DNA from: Escherichia coli
GTDB taxonomy: Bacteria; Pseudomonadota; Gammaproteobacteria; Enterobacterales; Enterobacteriaceae
Reading direction: 5' to 3' (one strand)
Assembly (NCBI RefSeq): GCF_016026235.1
Contig: NZ_CP065613.1
DNA length: 64,000 bases
In this document: in pieces, positions 1-42,725 of the stretch
How positions within the stretch are numbered: position 1 is the first letter of the stretch
How the letters are laid out: each line of letters opens with the position of its first letter
Notes under the pieces: model-generated
Told to the model about the DNA's origin: nothing
Database searches by the model: none
The model's input: the letters and a program-made list of their open reading frames with translations, nothing else
Program-made: the position numbers and the translations under genes

Positions 1-1651
1 TCGCTGACTGATGTAGCATGACTGCGGCGTGAGCGATGATTTTCTCTTTTAATAATAGTGCCGCACTGCGCAGCGCAGGCGCGGCAACATAGCTCTGGCG
101 TGAGGCAAATGCGCCGGGATCGAACGGCGTAACGTCGGTATCTTGAGTTGAAATAACGCGAACGTCGCTGACGGGAACCCCCACGGTTTCTGCCACCATT
201 TGCGAGAAGACGGTGTCGGCACCCTGACCGATTTCCGTCGCGCCGCTTTGCACGTTGATGGTTCCATCCTGATTCATCAGAAGGCGCGCGCCTGCTATTT
301 CTACGCCGACAGGCCAGGTGTTAGAGGTGTAGCTAAAACAGGCGACGCCAACGCCGCGGCGCAAATTGCCTTGCTGGTTCTGGCATTCTGCACGGCGTTT
401 TTCCCATTCAAAGATTTTCCGGCCTTTTTCAAGACACTCCGGCAACCCTGCGCTGTAAATACGTTTGCCCGTGAGCGGATTAGCATCTCCTTCGCGGGCG
501 GCGTTGCGTAAACGAATTTCAGCAGGATCAATACCTAACGCTGTCGCGGCGTCATCAAGCATAGACTCAACGGCAAATACGACTTGTGGCGCGCCATAAC
601 CACGCATCGCACCAGCCGAGGGGTGGTTGGTATAGCAGGTCTTTGAACTGTAAGCGTAGGCACAACGAGGATAAAGGTAAGCGACTTTATTCCCCCCCGC
701 AGAAGCGATGGAGTGCCCGTGAGATGCATAAGCGCCGGTGTTAGACAGAACATCCAGACTATAACCTTTCAATGTTCCGTCGCGGTTCACGCCCATTTGC
801 CCGTCAATGGTAAAAGCGTGGCGGGTACGGGTTGCGAGGAAACACTCTTCACGGCTAAGGGAAACTTTCACCGGAATGCCGCCAAGCTTGCTGGTCAGGA
901 ATGCCGCCATTGGCTCTTCCAGTACATCCTGTTTATTACCAAAACCGCCACCGACAAATGGTTTGATGACTCGTACGCATGACCAGGGAATATCCAGCGC
1001 CTGACCAACCACGCGGCGAACAATGTGCGGGATCTGGGTGCTGGAAACGATGGTAATTCGCGAGTCATCCTCCATCCACGCCAGCGATGTTACGCTTTCC
1101 ATGTGACAATGTTGAATAACGGGGGTCTGATAGTGCCCCTGTACCTGGTAGTCGGCGGCATCGATTGTTTGTTGGACATTACCCGTCGACATCGTGCTTT
1201 GTTTCAGTAAATTGCCACCGTTATGGATTGGTGCAGCGTCTTCTGCCAGCGCCGCTTCTGGCGTGGTGATAACGGGTAATTCTTGCCACTCAATGCTGAC
1301 CAATTGCGCCGCTTTTTCTGCCGTGAGTTCATCGCGGGCCACGACGATGGCAACGGCGTCACCATGATGACGAACATGGCGAGTTAGCAGTGCGCGATCG
1401 GCGGTATCGCGCTTGTTTTCGTCAAGTGTCCAGGCATGCCCAGCTGTAGCGAATGGAATATCAGGCACATCTTCCCAGGTAAAAATCGCCAGTACGCCCG
1501 GCAAACTTCTGGCTTGTTCATCATTAATACTTACGGCATAACCATGTGCGATAGGGCTACGTACATATTTCGCATAACACATGCCCGCCATAACATAATC
1601 GTCAGTATATCGTGCCCGCCCGGTGACCTTAGCAATGGCATCGACGCGCAT
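1..1651 (-). CDS. xdhA: Xanthine dehydrogenase molybdenum-binding subunit XdhA, N-terminal part (gene runs off the window start)
   Basis: Reverse-complement of 1621-1690 translates MEAREATATGESCMRVDAIAKVTG; MRVDAIAKVTG matches the XdhA N-terminus as I recall it. Open frame continues to position 1. Divergent from ygeR as in K-12. An in-frame ATG at 1690 is an alternative start. Confidence 0.8.
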   Translation of the reverse strand, partial: MRVDAIAKVTGRARYTDDYVMAGMCYAKYVRSPIAHGYAVSINDEQARSLPGVLAIFTWEDVPDIPFATAGHAWTLDENKRDTADRALLTRHVRHHGDAVAIVVARDELTAEKAAQLVSIEWQELPVITTPEAALAEDAAPIHNGGNLLKQSTMSTGNVQQTIDAADYQVQGHYQTPVIQHCHMESVTSLAWMEDDSRITIVSSTQIPHIVRRVVGQALDIPWSCVRVIKPFVGGGFGNKQDVLEEPMAAFLTSKLGGIPVKVSLSREECFLATRTRHAFTIDGQMGVNRDGTLKGYSLDVLSNTGAYASHGHSIASAGGNKVAYLYPRCAYAYSSKTCYTNHPSAGAMRGYGAPQVVFAVESMLDDAATALGIDPAEIRLRNAAREGDANPLTGKRIYSAGLPECLEKGRKIFEWEKRRAECQNQQGNLRRGVGVACFSYTSNTWPVGVEIAGARLLMNQDGTINVQSGATEIGQGADTVFSQMVAETVGVPVSDVRVISTQDTDVTPFDPGAFASRQSYVAAPALRSAALLLKEKIIAHAAVMLHQSA

Positions 1652-2104
1652 GCATGATTCACCCGTAGCGGTTGCTTCCCGCGCTTCCATAGAAATCCCC
1701 TCGATTTGAACATTTGGTTCTTATGGCAAAGATTTAGTCTAAGCAGGCAAGATTTACGCCAGAAACGACGATAAGCGTTAGGGGAGGTAGGAAGTGTGAT
1801 GACGTTAAAAAAACACAGATATGATACGAAACAGGACTCTGAATAGGGGCAGTGATACGTATCAATATGAGTGGCGATAAAATCAATGTGATAAATTGGG
1901 ATTATTACGCATCAGGATGGGAAATAGGGTAAAAAGTCAGGAAGTTCGATACCTCTACAGCGAATATTTTGCTGATGATACTTCCCTTTGCCAAATGAAA
2001 TTAACCTCTTTCTCTATTACCACGTTTTTCCAGAAGCAAGAGATTGGGTATCAAGAGGCTGGCTGCTATGATAAGGCGTCTTGTTTTTTAAGCGAGGAAA
2101 GATT

Positions 2105-2860
2105 TTGAGTGCGGGACGCCTGAATAAAAAATCTCTGGGTATCGTGATGTTGTTATCGGTTGGACTGCTTTTGGCGGGCTGTTCGGGTAGCAAATCATCC
2201 GATACAGGAACGTATTCCGGCTCCGTTTACACCGTGAAACGGGGGGATACGCTATATCGTATTTCGCGCACCACGGGAACCAGCGTAAAAGAACTGGCGC
2301 GACTGAACGGCATTTCCCCCCCTTACACCATTGAAGTTGGTCAGAAACTAAAACTGGGTGGGGCGAAAAGTAGCAGTAGTACACGTAAATCAACCGCCAA
2401 ATCAACGACCAAAACCGCATCGGTTACACCGTCATCAGCGGTACCGAAATCTTCCTGGCCGCCAGTAGGGCAACGTTGTTGGTTATGGCCAACGACAGGG
2501 AAAGTTATCATGCCGTATTCGACAGCAGATGGCGGCAATAAAGGGATTGATATCTCAGCTCCACGGGGTACACCTATTTACGCCGCGGGTGCAGGAAAGG
2601 TGGTGTATGTGGGCAACCAGCTGCGTGGCTACGGTAATCTCATCATGATTAAACACAGTGAAGATTACATTACGGCTTACGCCCATAATGACACGATGCT
2701 GGTAAATAATGGGCAAAGCGTGAAGGCTGGGCAAAAAATCGCCACTATGGGGAGCACGGATGCGGCATCTGTTCGCCTGCATTTCCAGATTCGTTACCGT
2801 GCAACGGCAATTGATCCGCTACGTTACTTGCCGCCGCAGGGCAGCAAGCCAAAATGCTGA
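2105..2860 (+). CDS. ygeR: LysM/M23-peptidase lipoprotein YgeR
   Basis: ORF 2081-2860; signal peptide with lipobox LLAGCSG, LysM-like motif (YTVKRGDTLYRIS), C-terminal M23 peptidase-like region. A TTG at 2105 gives the 251-aa form; the ATG at 2081 is an alternative. Confidence 0.85.
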   Translation: MSAGRLNKKSLGIVMLLSVGLLLAGCSGSKSSDTGTYSGSVYTVKRGDTLYRISRTTGTSVKELARLNGISPPYTIEVGQKLKLGGAKSSSSTRKSTAKSTTKTASVTPSSAVPKSSWPPVGQRCWLWPTTGKVIMPYSTADGGNKGIDISAPRGTPIYAAGAGKVVYVGNQLRGYGNLIMIKHSEDYITAYAHNDTMLVNNGQSVKAGQKIATMGSTDAASVRLHFQIRYRATAIDPLRYLPPQGSKPKC

Positions 2861-2938
2861 TGGCGAATTAATCAGCAGTCAGCAGCGCGGCACTTGCTAA
2901 GGAGAGCGTAAGGTTTATAATGCCTTACGCATCTCGAA

Positions 2939-3012
2939 GCGGGCGTAGTTCAATGGTAGAACGAGAGCTTCCCAAGCTCTATACGAGGGTTCGATTCCCT
3001 TCGCCCGCTCCA
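2939..3012 (+). tRNA. glyU: tRNA-Gly (anticodon CCC)
   Basis: 74-nt sequence GCGGGCGTAGTTCAATGGTAGAACGAGAGCTTCCCAAGCTCTATACGAGGGTTCGATTCCCTTCGCCCGCTCCA; cloverleaf with anticodon loop CTTCCCAAG, T-loop GGTTCGATTCC, 3' CCA. Confidence 0.95.
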
Positions 3013-3245
3013 ATTTATCTTCACCTCATCAATCTGCCATTTTTGCTGTATCTGATTTTCTATATTATCTTAATTCAATCGCTTCAGACTTTTCGCAATC
3101 GCCGTAATATTTCCCCATTTTGTTGTAAATAAAAAGCGTTTACGCAATGCAATCCTTTTGTAACAACCCAGGTAAAACACCTTATTTTCAAGTTGTTAAA
3201 TAAGTGGTTATCTACGCTTTTAACAAACGATTGATGGAATATTTT

Positions 3246-3301
3246 ATGAAAGGGAAATCTGCATTAACTCTTCTGCTCGCTGGTATATTTTCGTGCGGCA
3301 C
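3246..3301 (+). pseudogene. 5' stub of a lipoprotein-like gene (MKGKSALTLLLAGIFSCGT) cut off by IS1
   Basis: ATG at 3246 followed by a signal-peptide/lipobox-like sequence; reading frame runs directly into the IS1 left inverted repeat at 3302. Confidence 0.35.
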
Positions 3302-3356
3302 GGTGATGCTGCCAACTTACTGATTTAGTGTATGATGGTGTTTTTGAGGTGCTCCA

Positions 3357-3632
3357 GTGGCTTCTGTTTCTATCAGCTGTCCCTCCTGTTCAGCTACTGA
3401 CGGGGTGGTGCGTAACGGCAAAAGCACCGCCGGACATCAGCGCTATCTCTGCTCTCACTGCCGTAAAACATGGCAACTGCAGTTCACTTACACCGCTTCT
3501 CAACCCGGTACGCACCAGAAAATCATTGATATGGCCATGAATGGCGTTGGATGCCGGGCAACTGCCCGCATTATGGGCGTTGGCCTCAACACGATTTTAC
3601 GTCACTTAAAAAACTCAGGCCGCAGTCGGTAA
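3357..3632 (+). CDS. insA: IS1 InsA (transposition repressor)
   Basis: 91-aa [40 protein letters not shown]... with zinc-finger-like CxxC...CxxC; standard IS1 organisation. Confidence 0.9.
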
Positions 3633-4054
3633 CCTCGCGCATACAGCCGGGCAGTGACGTCATCGTCTGCGCGGAAATGGACGAACAGTGGGGCTATGTC
3701 GGGGCTAAATCGCGCCAGCGCTGGCTGTTTTACGCGTATGACAGTCTCCGGAAGACGGTTGTTGCGCACGTATTCGGTGAACGCACTATGGCGACGCTGG
3801 GGCGTCTTATGAGCCTGCTGTCACCCTTTGACGTGGTGATATGGATGACGGATGGCTGGCCGCTGTATGAATCCCGCCTGAAGGGAAAGCTGCACGTAAT
3901 CAGCAAGCGATATACGCAGCGAATTGAGCGGCATAACCTGAATCTGAGGCAGCACCTGGCACGGCTGGGACGGAAGTCGCTGTCGTTCTCAAAATCGGTG
4001 GAGCTGCATGACAAAGTCATCGGGCATTATCTGAACATAAAACACTATCAATAA
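3551..4054 (+). CDS. insB: IS1 InsB (transposase made as InsAB' by -1 frameshift)
   Basis: 167-aa ORF overlapping the insA 3' end; slippery A-run TTAAAAAAC at about 3604-3612 inside the overlap. Confidence 0.9.
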
Positions 4055-4069
4055 GTTGGAGTCATTACC

Positions 4070-4249
4070 CGTCGGGTCAATGTCAATGGTGGCGCGATCG
4101 CACTCGGTCACCCGATAGGCGCTTCCGGTTGCCGAATCCTGGTTTCTCTGGTTCATGAAATGGTGAAACGTAATGCCCGCAAAGGGCTGGCAACGCTTTG
4201 TATCGGCGGGGGCCAGGGCGTGGCATTGACCATTGAACGTGACGAGTAG
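4070..4249 (+). pseudogene. yqeF: 3' remnant (59 codons) of acetyl-CoA acetyltransferase (thiolase) yqeF, truncated by IS1
   Basis: Frame starting immediately after the IS1 right end translates [59 protein letters not shown], a typical thiolase C-terminus; no start codon or N-terminal domain. Confidence 0.8.
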
Positions 4250-4406
4250 CTCTGCATTTCCTCCTTACCGATAAATATCTGCCGTCATTAATCTGTTGAA
4301 TAATGATGGCTGGCAAGTCGACATTCATTTTCTGGGCTCCCTCATTTTTCCATTCTCATGACATATTCGTGATCGACACTGCACTTTTTTTAATCCTTAA
4401 CTTAAA

Positions 4407-4492
4407 AATGAAACATTGTTTTATTTTTAATTGAAAACCCTAGCCCATGGGCATATCATCCCTTTATAGAGAAAACGAAACAGTGTTTCACT
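4407..4492 (+). promoter_or_regulatory. Two KdgR-type operator palindromes in the kduI promoter region
   Basis: AATGAAACATTGTTTTATT (4407-4425) and AACGAAACAGTGTTTCACT (4474-4492) both fit the KdgR box pattern AATRAAAYRNYGTTTYAWT; located 45-130 bp upstream of kduI. Confidence 0.45.
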
Positions 4493-4535
4493 ATCGTTTT
4501 CTATTTTCACGCTTCACTGATTATCGGAGGTTGAT

Positions 4536-5372
4536 GTGGACGTAAGACAGAGCATCCACAGTGCGCACGCAAAAACGCTGGATACCCAAGGGCTGCGCAA
4601 TGAATTTTTGGTTGAAAAGGTATTTGTCGCCGATGAGTACACCATGGTTTACAGCCACATTGACCGAATTATTGTTGGCGGCATTATGCCGATAACTAAA
4701 ACGGTTTCCGTTGGCGGGGAAGTTGGTAAACAACTCGGCGTAAGCTATTTCCTTGAACGTCGCGAGTTAGGTGTTATCAATATTGGCGGTGCCGGTACGA
4801 TTACTGTCGATGGCCAATGCTATGAAATCGGTCACCGCGACGCCCTGTATGTTGGTAAAGGTGCAAAAGAAGTTGTCTTTGCCAGTATTGATACCGCCAC
4901 TCCGGCAAAGTTTTATTACAATTGCGCACCCGCGCATACGACGTATCCCACCAAAAAAGTCACACCGGACGAAGTATCTCCAGTCACGTTAGGCGATAAC
5001 CTCACCAGTAACCGTCGCACAATTAACAAATATTTTGTCCCGGATGTGCTGGAAACCTGCCAATTGAGTATGGGGCTGACGGAGCTGGCTCCAGGTAACT
5101 TGTGGAACACCATGCCGTGTCACACTCACGAGCGCCGGATGGAAGTTTATTTCTATTTCAATATGGATGATGACGCCTGCGTTTTCCACATGATGGGGCA
5201 GCCGCAAGAAACGCGTCACATTGTGATGCATAACGAGCAGGCGGTGATCTCCCCGAGCTGGTCGATTCATTCCGGCGTCGGAACCAAAGCTTATACCTTT
5301 ATCTGGGGCATGGTCGGTGAAAACCAGGTCTTTGATGATATGGACCATGTGGCCGTTAAAGATTTGCGCTAG
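4536..5372 (+). CDS. kduI: 5-dehydro-4-deoxy-D-glucuronate isomerase
   Basis: 278-aa ORF ([24 protein letters not shown]...), GTG start preceded by GGAGG; synteny with kduD. Confidence 0.95.
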
Positions 5373-5401
5373 TTGTGGGCATAAACGAATAAGGTATTGT
5401 T

Positions 5402-6163
5402 ATGATTTTAAGTGCATTTTCTCTCGAAGGTAAAGTTGCGGTCGTCACTGGCTGTGATACTGGGCTGGGCCAGGGGATGGCGTTGGGGCTGGCGCAAGCG
5501 GGCTGTGACATTGTTGGCATTAACATCGTTGAACCTACTGAAACCATCAAGCAGGTCACGGCGCTGGGGCGTCGTTTTTTAAGCCTGACCGCCGATCTGC
5601 GAAAGATTGATGGTATTCCAGCACTGCTGGATCGCGCGGTAGCGGAGTTTGGTCATATTGATATCCTGGTGAATAACGCCGGATTGATTCGCCGCGAAGA
5701 TGCTCTCGAGTTCAGCGAAAAGGACTGGGACGATGTCATGAACCTGAATATCAAGAGCGTATTCTTCATGTCTCAGGCAGCGGCGAAACACTTTATCGCG
5801 CAAGGCAATGGCGGCAAGATTATCAATATCGCGTCAATGCTCTCCTTCCAGGGCGGGATCCGTGTGCCTTCTTATACCGCATCAAAAAGCGGCGTGATGG
5901 GTGTGACGCGATTGATGGCGAACGAATGGGCTAAACACAACATTAATGTTAATGCGATAGCTCCGGGTTACATGGCGACCAACAATACTCAACAACTACG
6001 GGCAGATGAACAACGTAGCGCGGAAATTCTCGACCGCATTCCAGCTGGTCGTTGGGGACTGCCGAGTGACCTGATGGGGCCGATAGTGTTCCTTGCCTCC
6101 AACGCTTCAGATTATGTGAATGGTTATACCATTGCCGTGGATGGCGGTTGGCTGGCGCGTTAA
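5402..6163 (+). CDS. kduD: 2-dehydro-3-deoxy-D-gluconate 5-dehydrogenase (SDR family)
   Basis: 253-aa ORF with SDR glycine motif VTGCDTGLG and catalytic YxxxK (YTASK). Confidence 0.95.
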   Translation: MILSAFSLEGKVAVVTGCDTGLGQGMALGLAQAGCDIVGINIVEPTETIKQVTALGRRFLSLTADLRKIDGIPALLDRAVAEFGHIDILVNNAGLIRREDALEFSEKDWDDVMNLNIKSVFFMSQAAAKHFIAQGNGGKIINIASMLSFQGGIRVPSYTASKSGVMGVTRLMANEWAKHNINVNAIAPGYMATNNTQQLRADEQRSAEILDRIPAGRWGLPSDLMGPIVFLASNASDYVNGYTIAVDGGWLAR

Positions 6164-6185
6164 TTCATTCTTCTTACTTTTATGA

Positions 6186-6210
6186 CCCTGCCGCATGGCA
6201 GGGTTTTTTA
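6186..6210 (+). terminator. Intrinsic terminator after kduD
   Basis: Hairpin CCCTGCCGCATGGCAGGG followed by a T-run. Confidence 0.6.
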
Positions 6211-6477
6211 TACCTGTAGATCATCATAATCCATATCATGGTTATGAAATAATCCATATTAATTATCAATCAATGAACTTTATGAATTTTATCTGCTGTA
6301 AAATTAGGTGGTTAATAATAATCTCAATAATTCAACTTATTTTGAAAATTGGAATATCCATCACATAACGACATGTCGCAGCAATTTAATCCATATTTAT
6401 GCTGTTTCCGACCTGACACCTGCGTGAGTTGTTCACGTATTTTTTCACTATGTCTTACTCTCTGCTGGCAGGAAAAA

Positions 6478-7896
6478 ATGGTTACTATCAATACGGAATC
6501 TGCTTTAACGCCACGTTCTTTGCGGGATACGCGGCGTATGAATATGTTTGTTTCGGTAGCTGCTGCGGTCGCAGGATTGTTATTTGGTCTTGATATCGGC
6601 GTAATCGCCGGAGCGTTGCCGTTCATTACCGATCACTTTGTGCTGACCAGTCGTTTGCAGGAATGGGTGGTTAGTAGCATGATGCTCGGCGCAGCAATTG
6701 GTGCGCTGTTTAATGGTTGGCTGTCGTTCCGCCTGGGGCGTAAATACAGCCTGATGGCGGGGGCCATCCTGTTTGTACTCGGTTCTATAGGGTCCGCTTT
6801 TGCGACCAGCGTAGAGATGTTAATCGCCGCTCGTGTGGTGCTGGGCATTGCTGTCGGGATCGCGTCTTACACCGCTCCTCTGTATCTTTCTGAAATGGCA
6901 AGTGAAAACGTTCGCGGTAAGATGATCAGTATGTACCAGTTGATGGTCACACTCGGCATCGTGCTGGCGTTTTTATCTGATACAGCGTTCAGTTATAGCG
7001 GTAACTGGCGCGCAATGTTGGGGGTTCTTGCTTTACCAGCAGTTCTGCTGATTATTCTGGTGGTCTTCCTGCCAAATAGCCCGCGCTGGCTGGCGGAAAA
7101 GGGGCGTCATATTGAGGCGGAAGAAGTATTGCGTATGCTGCGTGATACGTCGGAAAAAGCGCGAGAAGAACTCAACGAAATTCGTGAAAGCCTGAAGTTA
7201 AAACAGGGCGGTTGGGCACTGTTTAAGATCAACCGTAACGTCCGTCGTGCTGTGTTTCTCGGTATGTTGTTGCAGGCGATGCAGCAGTTTACCGGTATGA
7301 ACATCATCATGTACTACGCGCCGCGTATCTTCAAAATGGCGGGCTTTACGACCACAGAACAACAGATGATTGCGACTCTGGTCGTAGGGCTGACCTTTAT
7401 GTTCGCCACCTTTATTGCGGTGTTTACGGTAGATAAAGCAGGGCGTAAACCGGCTCTGAAAATTGGTTTCAGCGTGATGGCGTTAGGCACTCTGGTGCTG
7501 GGCTATTGCCTGATGCAGTTTGATAACGGTACGGCTTCCAGTGGCTTGTCCTGGCTCTCTGTTGGCATGACGATGATGTGTATTGCCGGTTATGCGATGA
7601 GCGCCGCGCCAGTGGTGTGGATCCTGTGCTCTGAAATTCAGCCGCTGAAATGCCGCGATTTCGGTATTACCTGTTCGACCACCACGAACTGGGTGTCGAA
7701 TATGATCATCGGCGCGACCTTCCTGACGCTGCTCGACAGCATTGGCGCTGCCGGTACGTTCTGGCTCTACACTGCGCTGAACATTGCGTTTGTGGGCATC
7801 ACTTTCTGGCTCATTCCGGAAACCAAAAATGTCACGCTGGAACATATCGAACGCAAACTGATGGCAGGCGAGAAGTTGAGAAATATCGGCATCTGA
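6478..7896 (+). CDS. araE: Arabinose:H+ symporter (MFS sugar porter)
   Basis: ORF 6349-7896; the ATG at 6478 gives the 472-aa protein [30 protein letters not shown]..., 12-TM sugar-porter signature. Confidence 0.95.
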
Positions 7897-7902
7897 TTTC
7901 AC

Positions 7903-7935
7903 GGGCCGGATGTGCTGTACATCCGGCCCTTTTTT
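7903..7935 (+). terminator. Intrinsic terminator after araE
   Basis: GC-rich hairpin GGGCCGGATGTGCTGTACATCCGGCCC followed by TTTTTT. Confidence 0.7.
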
Positions 7936-8024
7936 CGTTAATAGAGATTGGGCACTTGGCCGTTGAGGCGTTTGTCTCGTTCCTTATTCAGCCTTGTTGC
8001 GGTAACACACATCAGGAGAGAGGA

Positions 8025-8717
8025 ATGAAAACAATTGGTTTGCTGGGAGGAATGAGCTGGGAATCCACCATTCCTTACTATCGTTTGATAAATGAAGGCA
8101 TTAAACAGCGGCTTGGTGGGCTTCACTCTGCGCAAGTGCTGCTACATAGCGTCGATTTTCATGAAATAGAAGAGTGCCAGCGTCGCGGGGAATGGGATAA
8201 AACTGGGGACATTCTGGCTGAGGCGGCGCTTGGCTTACAGCGGGCGGGCGCAGAAGGTATTGTGTTATGTACCAATACGATGCATAAAGTGGCGGATGCC
8301 ATTGAGTCACGTTGCACTCTGCCTTTCTTACACATTGCGGATGCCACCGGACGTGCAATTACCGGGGCCGGAATGACTCGTGTGGCGCTGCTGGGTACGC
8401 GTTACACCATGGAACAGGATTTTTATCGCGGGCGGCTGACGGAACAATTTTCCATCAATTGTCTTATTCCTGAAGCGGATGAACGGGCGAAAATTAATCA
8501 GATTATTTTTGAAGAACTGTGTCTGGGGCAATTTACCGAAGCGTCACGCGCTTATTATGCGCAAGTGATTGCTCGCCTTGCAGAACAGGGCGCACAGGGC
8601 GTCATTTTTGGCTGCACAGAAATTGGTTTACTGGTGCCAGAAGAGCGCAGTGTTTTGCCTGTGTTTGATACTGCGGCGATCCATGCCGAGGATGCTGTCG
8701 CTTTTATGCTGTCGTAG
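8025..8717 (+). CDS. ygeA: Asp/Glu-racemase-family amino acid racemase YgeA
   Basis: ATG at 8025 with upstream AGGAGAGAGG gives the 230-aa protein [19 protein letters not shown]...; the longer ORF from 7650 overlaps araE and is rejected. Confidence 0.9.
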
Positions 8718-9639
8718 CTGACGACAAAATAGCGTCAAGAGAAGTGACCAGTTTCGGTAACCCCGCTTGTAAATGCCCACTAAACGCCTGAACCAGCGCT
8801 GATGACGGGCGGTGCAGGGGGCGGATCAGGCTGACGGTGAACGGAACCGCAATACTGAACCGCCGCACCACTAAACCGCTTGCCGCATAATCTAGTGCGG
8901 TGAGCGGGTTAACCACCGAAACACCTACCCCCGCCCGTACCATTGCGCAGACTGACGCGGCGCTGTGGGTTTCTACGATCATGCGTCGTTTAACCTGATG
9001 TTCAGTAAATAGCTGATCCAGCAACTGGCGATAGCTGTCAGTACGGGAAAGGCTGATGTAGTTCTCACCCTGAAAATCATCCGGCGTTAATACCTTTTTT
9101 ACCGCCAGCGGATGACCCGGAGGTAACACACACACTTCATCTAAAGAGAGTAATTCGGTACGTTCTGTTCCCGCAGGCGTATGGAGCGTTTCAGTGAGTC
9201 CTAAATCATGACGCTGGGCCGAGAGCCACTCTTCAAGTAGCGGTGATTCCTGGGGCACGATATTTAAGCTGACATCGGGATAACGTGCCAGAAAGGGTTG
9301 CAGGAGCTGCGGTAAAAAAGATTGCGAAAAGACCGGCAGGCAGGCAATAGACAGTTCTCCCTGGCGAAACTCGCGCAGACTTTCTGCGGCGCTGACAATG
9401 CGATCCAGTCCGTACCAGGATCGTTGCACTTCTTCAAACAGACGCAGTCCTTGCACGGTAGGATGTAATCGTCCACGTACGCGCTCAAACAATTTCAGCC
9501 CGATCACCTTCTCAAAGCGCGCAAGTTCGCGGCTGACGGTTGGCTGTGAGGTGTGTAGCAGGTGTGCCGCCTCAGTCAGGCTTCCGGCGGTCATTACCGC
9601 ATGAAAAATTTCAATATGACGTAAGTTAACGGCGGCCAT
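8704..9639 (-). CDS. lysR: LysR-type transcriptional activator of lysA
   Basis: 311-aa ORF with N-terminal HTH ([43 protein letters not shown]); divergent from lysA. Confidence 0.95.
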
Positions 9640-9760
9640 TAGCGCTCTCTCGCAATCCGGTAATCCATATCATTTTTGCATAGACTCGACATAAATCGAT
9701 ATTTTTTATTCTTTTTATGATGTGGCGTAATCATAAAAAAGCACTTATCTGGAGTTTGTT

Positions 9761-11023
9761 ATGCCACATTCACTGTTCAGCACCGATACCGATCTCACCG
9801 CCGAAAATCTGCTGCGTTTGCCCGCTGAATTTGGCTGCCCGGTGTGGGTCTACGATGCGCAAATTATTCGTCGGCAGATTGCAGCGCTGAAACAGTTTGA
9901 TGTGGTGCGCTTTGCACAGAAAGCCTGTTCCAATATTCATATTTTGCGATTAATGCGTGAGCAGGGCGTGAAAGTGGATTCCGTCTCGTTAGGCGAAATA
10001 GAGCGTGCGTTGGCGGCGGGTTACAATCCGCAAACGCACCCCGATGATATTGTTTTTACGGCAGATGTTATCGATCAGGCGACGCTTGAACGCGTCAGTG
10101 AATTGCAAATTCCGGTGAATGCGGGTTCTGTTGATATGCTCGACCAACTGGGCCAGGTTTCGCCAGGGCATCGGGTATGGCTGCGCGTTAACCCGGGGTT
10201 TGGTCACGGACATAGCCAAAAAACCAATACCGGTGGCGAAAACAGCAAGCACGGTATCTGGTACACCGATCTGCCCGCCGCACTGGACGTGATACAACGT
10301 CATCATCTGCAGCTGGTCGGCATTCACATGCACATTGGTTCTGGCGTTGATTATGCCCATCTGGAACAGGTGTGTGGTGCTATGGTGCGTCAGGTCATCG
10401 AATTCGGTCAGGATTTACAGGCTATTTCTGCGGGCGGTGGGCTTTCTGTTCCTTATCAACAGGGTGAAGAGGCGGTTGATACCGAACATTATTATGGTCT
10501 GTGGAATGCCGCGCGTGAGCAAATCGCCCGCCATTTGGGCCACCCTGTGAAACTGGAAATTGAACCGGGTCGCTTCCTGGTAGCGCAGTCTGGCGTATTA
10601 ATTACTCAGGTGCGGAGCGTCAAACAAATGGGGAGCCGCCACTTTGTGCTGGTTGATGCCGGGTTCAACGATCTGATGCGCCCGGCAATGTACGGTAGTT
10701 ACCACCATATCAGTGCCCTGGCAGCTGATGGTCGTTCTCTGGAACACGCGCCAACGGTGGAAACCGTCGTCGCCGGACCGTTATGTGAATCGGGCGATGT
10801 CTTTACCCAGCAGGAAGGGGGAAATGTTGAAACCCGCGCCTTGCCGGAAGTGAAGGCAGGTGATTATCTGGTACTGCATGATACAGGGGCATATGGCGCA
10901 TCAATGTCATCCAACTACAACAGCCGTCCGCTGTTACCAGAAGTTCTGTTTGATAATGGTCAGGCGCGGTTGATTCGCCGTCGCCAGACCATCGAAGAAT
11001 TACTGGCGCTGGAATTGCTTTAA
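9761..11023 (+). CDS. lysA: Diaminopimelate decarboxylase
   Basis: 420-aa ORF, PLP-dependent decarboxylase fold; divergent from lysR. Confidence 0.95.
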   Translation: MPHSLFSTDTDLTAENLLRLPAEFGCPVWVYDAQIIRRQIAALKQFDVVRFAQKACSNIHILRLMREQGVKVDSVSLGEIERALAAGYNPQTHPDDIVFTADVIDQATLERVSELQIPVNAGSVDMLDQLGQVSPGHRVWLRVNPGFGHGHSQKTNTGGENSKHGIWYTDLPAALDVIQRHHLQLVGIHMHIGSGVDYAHLEQVCGAMVRQVIEFGQDLQAISAGGGLSVPYQQGEEAVDTEHYYGLWNAAREQIARHLGHPVKLEIEPGRFLVAQSGVLITQVRSVKQMGSRHFVLVDAGFNDLMRPAMYGSYHHISALAADGRSLEHAPTVETVVAGPLCESGDVFTQQEGGNVETRALPEVKAGDYLVLHDTGAYGASMSSNYNSRPLLPEVLFDNGQARLIRRRQTIEELLALELL

Positions 11024-11029
11024 CTGCGG

Positions 11030-12061
11030 TTAGTCGCTGGTTGCATGATGACTTGCCTCCAGCGACGGAGTTGACACTGAATGACGACGTACCAGCGTCG
11101 GACTAAAGACATTAGTGATTTCCGGGAGAGGGCGATTATCCGCCAGCGCCAAAGCCAGTTCGGCAGCCTGGGTCGCCATCGTCACGATTGGGTAACGCAC
11201 GGTGGTCAGGCGCGGACGCACATAGCGTGACACCAGCACATCATCAAAGCCAATTAACGAAATCTCACCCGGTACATCAATACCATTATCATTGAGAACG
11301 CCCATCGCACCCGCCGCCATTGAATCGTTATAACAGGCTACCGCAGTGAAATTTCTTCCTCGTCCCAAAAGCTCGGTCATTGCCTGTTCGCCGCCGCTTT
11401 CGTCTGGTTCGCCAAATGTCACCAGCCGGTCATTGGCCGCAATACCACTTTCAGCAAGGGCATCGTAATACCCTTGCAGACGATCTTCGGCGTCAGAAAT
11501 AGAGTGGTTAGAGCACAGATAACCAATGCGGGTATGACCTTGCTGAATTAAATGACGCGTTGCCAGCCAGGCACCGTAACGATCGTCAAGAGCAATACAA
11601 CGGTTTTCAAAGCCAGGCAGGATACGGTTGATCAGCACCATACCGGGCATTTGTTTCATTAATGAGGCTAAATCGGCATCCGGGATCATTTTGGCATGGA
11701 CGACCAACGCAGCACAGCGATGGCGGATCAGTTGCTCAATAGCCTGACGCTCTTTTTGTTCGTTGTGGTAACCGTTGCCAATCAATAAGAAATTACCGGT
11801 GTGATAAGCCACCTGTTCGACCGCTTTCACCATTGCACCGAAAAACGGATCGGAAACATCACCAACGATCAGACCGACCGTTTCAGTGGTCTGCTGCGCC
11901 AGCGCACGGGCGTTGGCGTTCGGGTGATAGCTAAGAGACTCCATTGCACTATGCACAGCCAGCCGGGAAGCTTCGCTGGCTTTGGGTGAATTATTAATGA
12001 CGCGGGAAACGGTGGCGACTGAAACGCCTGCCAGTCGGGCTACATCCTTTATGGTCGCCAT
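11030..12061 (-). CDS. galR: Galactose operon repressor (LacI/GalR family)
   Basis: 343-aa ORF with N-terminal HTH MATIKDVARLAGVSVATVSRVINN. Confidence 0.95.
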   Translation of the reverse strand: MATIKDVARLAGVSVATVSRVINNSPKASEASRLAVHSAMESLSYHPNANARALAQQTTETVGLIVGDVSDPFFGAMVKAVEQVAYHTGNFLLIGNGYHNEQKERQAIEQLIRHRCAALVVHAKMIPDADLASLMKQMPGMVLINRILPGFENRCIALDDRYGAWLATRHLIQQGHTRIGYLCSNHSISDAEDRLQGYYDALAESGIAANDRLVTFGEPDESGGEQAMTELLGRGRNFTAVACYNDSMAAGAMGVLNDNGIDVPGEISLIGFDDVLVSRYVRPRLTTVRYPIVTMATQAAELALALADNRPLPEITNVFSPTLVRRHSVSTPSLEASHHATSD

Positions 12062-12274
12062 GAAAATACCTTAGTGGGTAAACGCTTACATTCTTTCAGT
12101 GTTACGGAAAACGCCCGTTGGTTCAAGGGGTGGCGTGTTTTCATCGTGGGAATGTGAGCCAAACGCAAATAAGTAAGACAAAAAAAGAGATTGCAAACCT
12201 TTGGTTACACTTTGCGAAACGCTGTTGCGATTGACCGCTGGTGGCGTTTGGCTTCAGGTTGCTAAAGTGGTGAT

Positions 12275-17161: not shown

Positions 17162-18587
17162 TAATGCCAGTCAGTTAAGCAACTGACTGGCTCTTTTTCG
17201 GGGCTGTGGGGTATTTCCAGGGCCTCTCCTTTACCACTCTCGGGAAGGCCCTTCCCCTTCTCGTCGGTAATTTCACAAGTTGTCCCATACTTGCAAGATC
17301 GCGCATCAGCTCCGGTATACGTCCCGGTGAAGCGCCCTGCAATGTCATCAGCATTCTCATCACCATTCCGCATGATTCTGAGAAACTCAGTTGATTCGGC
17401 CAGTAACCTTTCAGATGTTCCGCCATTTTAATCATCTGATATCTCACCAGATTATAAGCCAGTAAGACACCCCACAGCTCTTGCTCCACAAGCTCCGGCT
17501 TTTTACTTCTCAGCGTCAGCCTGCTCAGTTGCATCGTCTGTTTTATCTCCCTGTATCCCAGTTCGATTTCCCAGCGATGACTGTACAGATCCGCCATTTC
17601 TCCTCCGGGGAAGCGCATGGCGTCCGTCATCGACGTCAGCAGATGGCAGACTTTTCCTTTGCGCGTCACGGTCAGCAGGCGGGCTGTCACTTCATTTCCC
17701 AGTCCCGGCCACTTTTTTCGTGCCTGCGGGCTGGTTTTCAGCTTCACCAGATGATCGCCTTTACCCAGTTTTCTGAGCTCTTCATATTGCGCTCCCTTTC
17801 TGAGAGGTATCATCCAGTGGCGGTGTTCTCCCGCCAGGCTCCAGGCATTTAACAGTCCCAGTGAGTAATAACCTTTATCCATTAACGTCAGAGTGTTATC
17901 GCCGGTTTGTTCTATAAGTTGCTCAGCAAGCTCATTTTCGCTGTTCTTCATCGTGCCGAAGGCTGCAGCCGTCAGCAGATGGCTGGTCAGTTCCATCTGG
18001 CAGACCATTTTGACCTGCGGGTAGAGCGCCGGGTTCCCGGCATGTGTCTGGCGGGGGAAGGCTGCATCGTTCTCTGGTGTATCCGGTGTGCGCCAGAACA
18101 CACCATCGATGGCCAGCAGGGTCAGGCCGCACCAGTGCGGATGCGGCGTGGCGTTATGCCAGAGCTGCGCTGTTTTCGTGAACACGCGGCGGACAGCCTC
18201 ACTTCCCAGGCGCTGGCGGGCCTGAATAACGGCACTGGGGGCAACGAAGGGGCGATTGCCCGGCAGCATGATGTCCAGGCGATTCACAATCTGGTGAAGA
18301 GGTTCTTTACGCTCAAGCGCCATGCCAACAATACACCAGACCATCATTTCGAGGGGAAGACGGCGCTTGCGTAGCGTTACAGTACCTGATTCGGCAAGGC
18401 AACGAGAGATGAGTTCGGGGTCGAGGTAATCCCCCAGAGAAGTCAGTGGGTTACGCAGAGAATCGTAACGGGATACCAGATCAAGAGCCTGTCCAATGTG
18501 CATAAAAAAATCCGGAAACAAGTGAGCGTTTCCGGATTCTTACACAGCCACTGGATCGGTCAACTGATCCTTAACTGATCGGCATTA
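17162..18587 (-). mobile_element. IS4 insertion sequence (1426 bp)
   Basis: Terminal inverted repeats TAATGCCAGTCAGTTAAG... (17162-) and ...CTTAACTGATCGGCATTA (-18587); 1426-bp length; one long transposase ORF; flanked by a 13-bp direct repeat. Confidence 0.9.
17175..18503 (-). CDS. insG: IS4 transposase (DDE family)
   Basis: ORF 17175-18521; likely start [18 protein letters not shown]... at 18503 (442 aa). Confidence 0.9.
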
Positions 18588-42344: not shown

Positions 42345-42417
42345 TAAAAAGGCGCTGAATGGCGCTTTTTTATAGGAGACCAGAAACAAAAAAACACCTG
42401 CTAGGGTGTTCAATAAT

Positions 42418-42494
<77 letters not shown>

Positions 42495-42528
42495 TCACCG
42501 TACTGCTTTTACTTCATCAAATTTTGAT

Positions 42529-42605
<77 letters not shown>

Positions 42606-42648
42606 TCACCGTACTGCTTTACTTCATCAAATTTTAATTGGTTGCGGG

Positions 42649-42725
<77 letters not shown>

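Follow-up and report, generated by a model that had tools for sequence, protein, structure and literature searches.

The IS1 element found between glyU and kduI in this Escherichia coli DNA sits at a deletion scar, which we consider likely to have arisen through adjacent deletion promoted by IS1, in what were probably two or more steps, at a locus that had already lost ETT2. The DNA analyzed is a stretch of 64,000 nucleotides (the window), in which IS1 joins the first codons of ygeQ directly to the last codons of the thiolase gene yqeF. The evidence comes from assemblies of the same clone, which agree at the left junction of IS1 but differ at the right junction, and from the closest relatives of the clone, in which the type III secretion (T3SS) genes are already missing.

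IS1 and the DNA on its two sides

The gene order beyond the scar is the usual one (xdhA-actS-glyU ... yqeF-kduI-kduD-araE), with actS (ygeR) as the conserved neighbor to the left of glyU (Table 1). glyU is the tRNA locus beside which ETT2 is integrated, and a P4-like element is likewise integrated there in one relative. Rfam and promoter/terminator scans of positions 2700-4700 and 2860-4560 found nothing beyond glyU and unremarkable consensus matches.

Table 1. Features of the glyU-kduI locus in the window, from left to right
Feature	Position	Strand	Description
actS (ygeR)	2105-2860	+	LysM/M23 amidase activator; from the ORF and the RefSeq annotation of the 100%-identical FDAARGOS_943 stretch
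glyU, tRNA-Gly(CCC)	2939-3012	+	ARAGORN; Rfam tRNA, 71.6 bits; K-12 annotation
glyU-ygeQ intergenic	3013-3245		AT-rich, 32% G+C
ygeQ 5' stub	3246-3301	+	18 codons plus 2 nt, lipoprotein signal peptide, interrupted by IS1
IS1, complete, IS1A type	3302-4069	+	768 bp; IRL 3302-3324, IRR 4047-4069
IS1 coding	insA 3357-3632	+	A6C frameshift site 3608-3614; insB' frame ends at 4054
yqeF 3' remnant (thiolase)	4070-4249	+	Codons 335-393 plus stop, 59 codons
yqeF-kduI intergenic	4250-4535		286 bp; promoter-like site 4431-4459
kduI	4536-5372	+	First intact gene right of the scar; kduD and araE beyond

An AT-rich stretch of about 290 bp after glyU, noted in the initial annotation, was found to be 289 bp long (3013-3301), with a G+C content of 34% compared with 51.5% for the window as a whole; about 234 bp of it is intergenic and 56 nt is coding. 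These 289 bp match thousands of E. coli genomes, and the first ~142 bp after glyU are also found in genomes without an annotated gene under the match. The genomes that match solely the first 142 bp are probably ETT2-less B2-type strains, and the 142-bp limit of the glyU-side match appears to be the approximate left edge of the island DNA, with the remaining spacer on the island side. A segment of 73 bp just past glyU (window 3026-3098) is missing in K-12 and present in most other E. coli genomes.

The coding part of this stretch starts with an ATG at 3246 and is translated as MKGKSALTLLLAGIFSCG. This ATG is the annotated start of ygeQ, the product of which is called putative lipoprotein YgeQ in K-12 and, where it is full length in other genomes, is a 536-aa protein of glycoside hydrolase family 15 (GH15). 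The lipoprotein-like stub that had been counted as 19 codons is present and is the start of ygeQ, although its length is 18 codons plus 2 nt. Its end is the left deletion end point, which is common to the whole clone. On the other side, yqeF is cut to its last 59 codons and ends 286 bp before kduI, as had been described (about 290 bp). The start of the remnant at 4070 is the right deletion end point of the window variant.

The element between the two end points is complete, as had been reported, and measures exactly 768 bp; copies that are 100% identical to it are annotated as IS1A in RefSeq. Given its canonical end repeats (imperfect, ~23 bp, GGTGATGCTGCCAACTTACTGAT / GGTAATGACTCCAACTTATTGAT, with 18 of the 23 positions matching between the ends), an insA of 91 aa, the A6C site (AAAAAAC at 3608) and a fused InsAB' frame that stays open over 232 aa, the IS1 of the window looks functional. 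Pfam analysis of the 232-aa product of an identical copy (L014) identified the domains Zn_ribbon_InsA (PF03811), HTH_Tnp_IS1 (PF12759) and DDE_Tnp_IS1 (PF03400).

A simple insertion is expected to leave a direct repeat of 8-9 bp on both sides of the element. Re-inspection of the 9-mers that flank IS1 found no identical repeats: GTGCGGCAC (3293-3301) differs from CGTCGGGTC (4070-4078), and target-site duplication is therefore absent. The two flanks are 6.6-30 kb apart in every reference. Homology to K-12, 504239, O157:H7 and FDAARGOS_943 breaks exactly at 3301 and restarts exactly at 4070; the alignment against K-12 and O157 that had been proposed thus maps the deletion end points, and the earlier reading that this is not a simple insertion is borne out. 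IS1 is retained and the deletion begins precisely at an IS1 terminus, as in an adjacent deletion.

The IS load of the window, which had prompted the idea of a Shigella origin, is two elements in 64 kb, and obvious pseudogenes were not found; together with a nearest complete relative that is an E. coli, this speaks neither for nor against such an origin. The other element is an IS4 of 1,426 bp (17162-18587) between tas and ygdR. A target duplication of 13 bp without mismatch (CAGCCGGATGCTG) lies on its two sides, and, unlike IS1, it is a simple insertion. IS4 is carried by the clone members of the window type and of the GCA_031665325.1 type. It is absent from FDAARGOS_943, GCA_901482675.2 and ERR3372538 and also, as judged from contig extent, from the clone variant in which IS1 is joined to yqeG.

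Right junctions of the clone and the mode of deletion

The scar belongs to a clone of about 28-33 assemblies with rare XdhA and KduD alleles. Three kinds of right junction were found in this clone, and the orientation of IS1 is identical in all of them. In GCA_902503985.1 (L054), the contig opens with the final 76 bp of IS1, which run straight into yqeG at position 6476 of the FDAARGOS_943 stretch (L003), 1,525 bp to the left of the right junction of the window, and yqeF is intact. This assembly carries all three clone-defining SNPs and one private SNP. The 96-aa yqeG fragment was read in six more contigs, and in the three that were displayed (3/3) it lies at most 33 bp from the contig end; the end of the fragment in those three contigs is the point where GCA_902503985.1 enters IS1. 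The left junction of this type is beyond view, as every such contig stops in IS1. The right end of IS1 meets codon 335 of yqeF (L003 8001) in the window and in most members of the clone. In GCA_031665325.1 (L014/L052/L061), IRR abuts window position 4302 (L003 8233), so that 232 bp more are missing, comprising the yqeF remnant and 52 further bases; 234 bp of the yqeF-kduI spacer are left, whereas the window retains the spacer. GCA_031665325.1 is 100% identical to the window over positions 1-4069, a stretch that takes in the ygeQ|IRL junction and all of IS1. The window and GCA_031665325.1 thus form a nested pair, with a common left junction and right junctions at 4070 and 4302.

Either adjacent deletion or recombination between two IS1 copies had been offered as the origin of the scar. 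The left junction is common to clone mates and the right one varies among them, which is why we favor the first of these. The second would start from two direct IS1 copies, one in ygeQ and one in yqeF, and a RecA-dependent crossover would leave one hybrid IS1. It predicts the same picture in a single genome, with exact IS ends and unlike 9-mers, and double insertions do occur, as one lineage has two IS1 copies at the locus. In formal terms, a sequence by itself does not tell one-ended transposition from an insertion with later homologous recombination. The 5' part of ygeQ is also often hit by IS1 (11 positions in 24 complete genomes). However, to arrive at three right junctions, three further copies of IS1 would have to have inserted in one orientation inside 1.8 kb, with a crossover after every insertion, and a second IS1 in the interval was seen in no relative. 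We therefore regard homologous recombination as improbable.

Under adjacent deletion, the ancestral locus would have been arranged as glyU-ygeQ'-IS3-(truncated yqeH-IS2)-yqeG-yqeF-kduI, the T3SS genes having been lost through an older IS3-ended deletion. IS1 would then have entered ygeQ at codon 19, oriented so that insA is read toward yqeF. A simple insertion at this ygeQ anchor would have IRR followed by GTGCGGCACATGCCAGG as its right junction. Such a precursor, with IS1 at the anchor, a 9-bp duplication and the adjacent DNA present, was found in none of 5,426 complete E. coli genomes. By intramolecular transposition, InsAB' would move IRR into nearby DNA of the same chromosome while the ygeQ end stayed in place, presumably from the first step on. 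The intervening DNA would leave as a non-replicating circle, and IS1 and its left junction would be kept without target-site duplication. Repeats of this event would shift the IRR junction from yqeG to codon 335 of yqeF, which is the state of the window, and in one sub-lineage would carry it 232 bp further into the yqeF-kduI spacer.

The net loss comprises the rest of ygeQ, IS3, any leftovers of yqeH and IS2, yqeG and 85% of yqeF. Intact ygeQ, yqeG and a working yqeF are missing from the clone, and kduI and its upstream region with the promoter-like site are intact.

IS1-promoted adjacent deletions are known from the classical deletions of the gal region and are attributed to intramolecular replicative transposition of IS1. 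As in the window, IS1 is kept in these deletions, the missing DNA begins at the exact terminus of the element, there is no duplication, and one end is fixed while the other is variable. The classical deletions were selected as laboratory mutants, whereas the clone described here consists of natural isolates and the insertion that preceded its deletion was not recovered. A second parallel is IS150 in the E. coli long-term evolution experiment, where insertion is followed by adjacent deletion and later extension with no duplications around the IS (PMC11708052). The deletions in that experiment, like those of the window clone, grow stepwise beside a resident IS without duplication; IS150, however, belongs to the IS3 family and its time series was directly observed, whereas for IS1 in the window the order of the steps would follow from the comparison of clone mates. 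The scar is another case of a known mechanism at a locus with a known pattern of ETT2 decay, and provides a natural example of stepwise adjacent deletion by a resident IS that matches laboratory evolution.

The locus before IS1

The nearest genomes without the IS1 of the window are FDAARGOS_943 (L003), the Logan run ERR3372538 (L016/L020) and GCA_901482675.2 (L015/L073). Over the 13.1 kb of the right flank, 7, 7 and 4 SNPs, respectively, separate them from the window (about 99.95-99.97% identity), compared with an identity of merely 99.4% for the next-best complete genomes. Among complete genomes the nearest is FDAARGOS_943, an E. coli of 5.27 Mb. Its tandem tRNA-Met genes between amiC and mltA number two, compared with three in the window (42416-42717; unit of ~111 bp).

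In FDAARGOS_943, the locus reads glyU-ygeQ'(533 bp)-IS3-truncated yqeH-IS2-yqeG-yqeF(internal stop)-kduI. In GCA_901482675.2, glyU is followed by a 14.1-kb P4-like element and then by the same spacer and ygeQ'|IS3 junction, and the other end of IS3 is fused to a yqeG that is shortened by 71 codons. Not one type III secretion gene is present in either genome. Four unrelated genomes (L006, L012, L013 and L045; 99.4-99.5% identity) have the ygeQ'-IS3-yqeH junctions of FDAARGOS_943 as well, and since it occurs in these more distant genomes, the ygeQ'-IS3 isoform is old.

The SNP comparison covered 9 variable sites in 12.9 kb. Three derived SNPs (6102A, 6271C and 8204T) are present in all IS1-bearing members examined, and the first of these positions is also the site of a derived non-synonymous change in the KduD allele of the clone. 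One derived SNP is common to the IS1-bearing members and GCA_901482675.2, three are found in FDAARGOS_943 and ERR3372538, and two are private to single genomes. The SNPs point to the branching ((IS1 clade, GCA_901482675.2), FDAARGOS_943 group), in which the sister relation rests on the one shared derived SNP. By phylogenetic bracketing, the ancestor of the IS1 clade almost certainly already had ygeQ'-IS3 and was without the ETT2 core. We conclude that ETT2 was probably gone before IS1 acted, because both closest relatives are without the T3SS genes and have the same ygeQ'|IS3 junction.

The initial annotation had IS1 remove the whole island, which it put at about 20 kb in K-12. In K-12, 13.4 kb separate glyU from yqeF, and the window is short of 14,182 bp relative to K-12 MG1655, 22,397 bp relative to strain 504239, 30,033 bp relative to O157:H7 strain Z1832 with its full-length ETT2, and 6,568 bp relative to FDAARGOS_943. 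The apparent size of the lost interval varies with the chosen reference, and with K-12 or O157 as a yardstick the share of the resident IS is overstated; a reconstruction of the steps needs the nearest relatives. Most likely, IS1 itself removed about 4-6.6 kb of leftovers, that is, ~4.0 kb from a predecessor like GCA_901482675.2 or 6.6 kb from one like FDAARGOS_943. The DNA removed would comprise 478 bp of ygeQ', IS3, yqeG together with the interval that separated it from IS3, and 334 codons of yqeF, a gene that is already a pseudogene in FDAARGOS_943 and ERR3372538.

The claim that IS1 took out the whole island thus finds no support in the closest relatives. A full or K-12-like ETT2 (14-30 kb) could also have been removed from an ETT2-positive ancestor by one IS1 event, as the intervals missing relative to K-12, 504239 and O157:H7 (14.2, 22.4 and 30.0 kb) would fit, as IS1-associated loss of ETT2 is seen in other lineages such as YZ22PE67 and 2017.01.04CC, and as some genomes with the XdhA allele of FDAARGOS_943 still have ETT2 genes. 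Both closest relatives, however, are devoid of secretion genes and have a single ygeQ'|IS3 junction in common, which is also present in more distant genomes and which bracketing places in the clone ancestor as well. This makes a single event very improbable, and we keep to adjacent deletion by IS1 at a locus that had already been emptied.

The IS3 of the relatives mirrors IS1 (L073 16920-18147 versus L003 1911-5729). Its left junction in ygeQ is common to both genomes and its right end differs, lying in truncated yqeH in FDAARGOS_943 and in truncated yqeG in GCA_901482675.2, with a further deletion of 2.56 kb beside IS3. In another genome (L043 4085-4120), the ygeQ'/yqeH deletion junction is present without IS3 and differs from the IS3-bearing form by 4 bp (TAGA); either IS3 came into a deletion that already existed, or its later loss was almost precise.

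The P4-like element of GCA_901482675.2 (L073 2010-16105) lies at the 3' end of glyU, with a repeat of the last part of the tRNA, 19 bp long, at its borders. It carries genes for an integrase, AlpA, a D5-type primase, a ProQ-like protein, PerC, an IS110-family transposase and SocA. The presence of this element indicates that glyU is still used as an integration site.

Distribution of the scar and IS1 at ygeQ in other strains

The right junction (IRR|yqeF codon 335) was found in 0 of 5,426 complete RefSeq E. coli genomes, and the left junction (ygeQ|IRL) likewise in 0 of 5,426 as a single alignment. The right junction was also absent from the species representatives scanned. Since the complete genomes include B strains, a comparison with the E. 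coli B lineage, which had been suggested, gave neither junction, and an origin from E. coli B was rejected. No mention of a glyU-IS1-yqeF junction was found in the literature searched.

The clone was found by exact-protein look-ups with its lineage-specific Aas, KduD and XdhA alleles, which are listed in 33, 33 and 28 collection blocks, respectively. The best match is UGFA01000002.1 (GCA_900449985.1), a contig of 4.56 Mb that is 100% identical to the window over positions 1-12163. Draft assemblies of the clone break at IS1. They contain a contig of ~13 kb, which runs from within IS1 over the yqeF junction up to IS4, and a contig of ~25.6 kb, which stops at or within IS1 at the ygeQ junction. 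All three XdhA-allele contigs displayed reach or enter IS1 at the identical ygeQ position, and the other 20 were assigned to those three or to L061 by gene neighborhood. Look-ups with KduI, AraE and the common form of YqeF matched proteins in thousands of unrelated genomes and were uninformative about the lineage, although they made the variability of the locus evident. A 304-aa YqeF fragment was rejected as a marker, as the displayed matches, L020 excepted, are genes cut at contig ends.

The earlier view that the scar defines the strain lineage is therefore upheld, with no complete genome set against the assemblies of one clone. A small E. coli clone (~30 public assemblies) can be recognized by the junctions ygeQ codon 19|IRL and IRR|yqeF codon 335, and the variable right junction splits it into subgroups. 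Contigs misjoined through IS1, which is multi-copy and at which the drafts break, are a negligible prospect, as NCBI and Logan assemblies made independently of one another contain both junctions, as does the identical 4.56-Mb contig, so that the junctions are real.

IS1 is present in the 5' region of ygeQ, in the same orientation, in 24 complete genomes, with the insertions lying 22-481 bp past the window junction. In two of the three ygeQ-IS1 genomes inspected, the ETT2 DNA to the right of IS1 is deleted. YZ22PE67, 2017.01.04CC and strain 203740 resemble the window in that IS1 interrupts the first ~90 bp of ygeQ and points the same way, but differ from it in the point of insertion (+22, +52 and +86 bp). 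In YZ22PE67 (glyU-IS1-yqeG) and 2017.01.04CC (glyU-IS1-truncated ygeH), the DNA right of IS1 is missing as in the window, with the T3SS genes absent directly right of IS1 in the current state of the two genomes. The right end points of these other IS1-bounded deletions are in ygeH or upstream of yqeG, unlike that of the window in yqeF. CP078574.1, located by a route separate from the 24, likewise carries an IS1 in the glyU-yqeG interval, there on the other strand.

IS1-driven loss of ETT2 thus occurs in E. coli, though, as far as the evidence goes, not in the window clone. It is possible, though we hold this only tentatively, that the first ~500 bp of ygeQ, at the AT-rich edge of ETT2 next to glyU, are an IS1 hotspot whose one-ended deletions repeatedly strip ETT2 across unrelated lineages. 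If so, IS1 would be a main driver of the familiar, though mechanistically unexplained, "mutational attrition" of ETT2, and the window clone would be an extreme end state, in which erosion has gone past the island into the core genes yqeG and yqeF.

Attrition of ETT2 was reportedly described by Ren et al. in 2004. The scar adds to the evidence that IS elements shape the decay of ETT2 and has no bearing on questions of ETT2 function; its practical value is small. ETT2 mostly persists as deletion isoforms, often with IS elements (PMC11068852), and the window shares with these isoforms the glyU locus and the theme of decay. The window isoform goes beyond the other genomes inspected in that yqeG and most or all of yqeF are also gone, and differs from other ETT2 isoforms in that the final step would have been taken by IS1 on a locus that IS3 had emptied.

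In strain 203740 and seven relatives (L077), two inverted IS1 copies surround a GH15/ygeQ fragment beside a truncated yqeH. This arrangement would be the inversion-type or composite form expected of intramolecular IS1 transposition.
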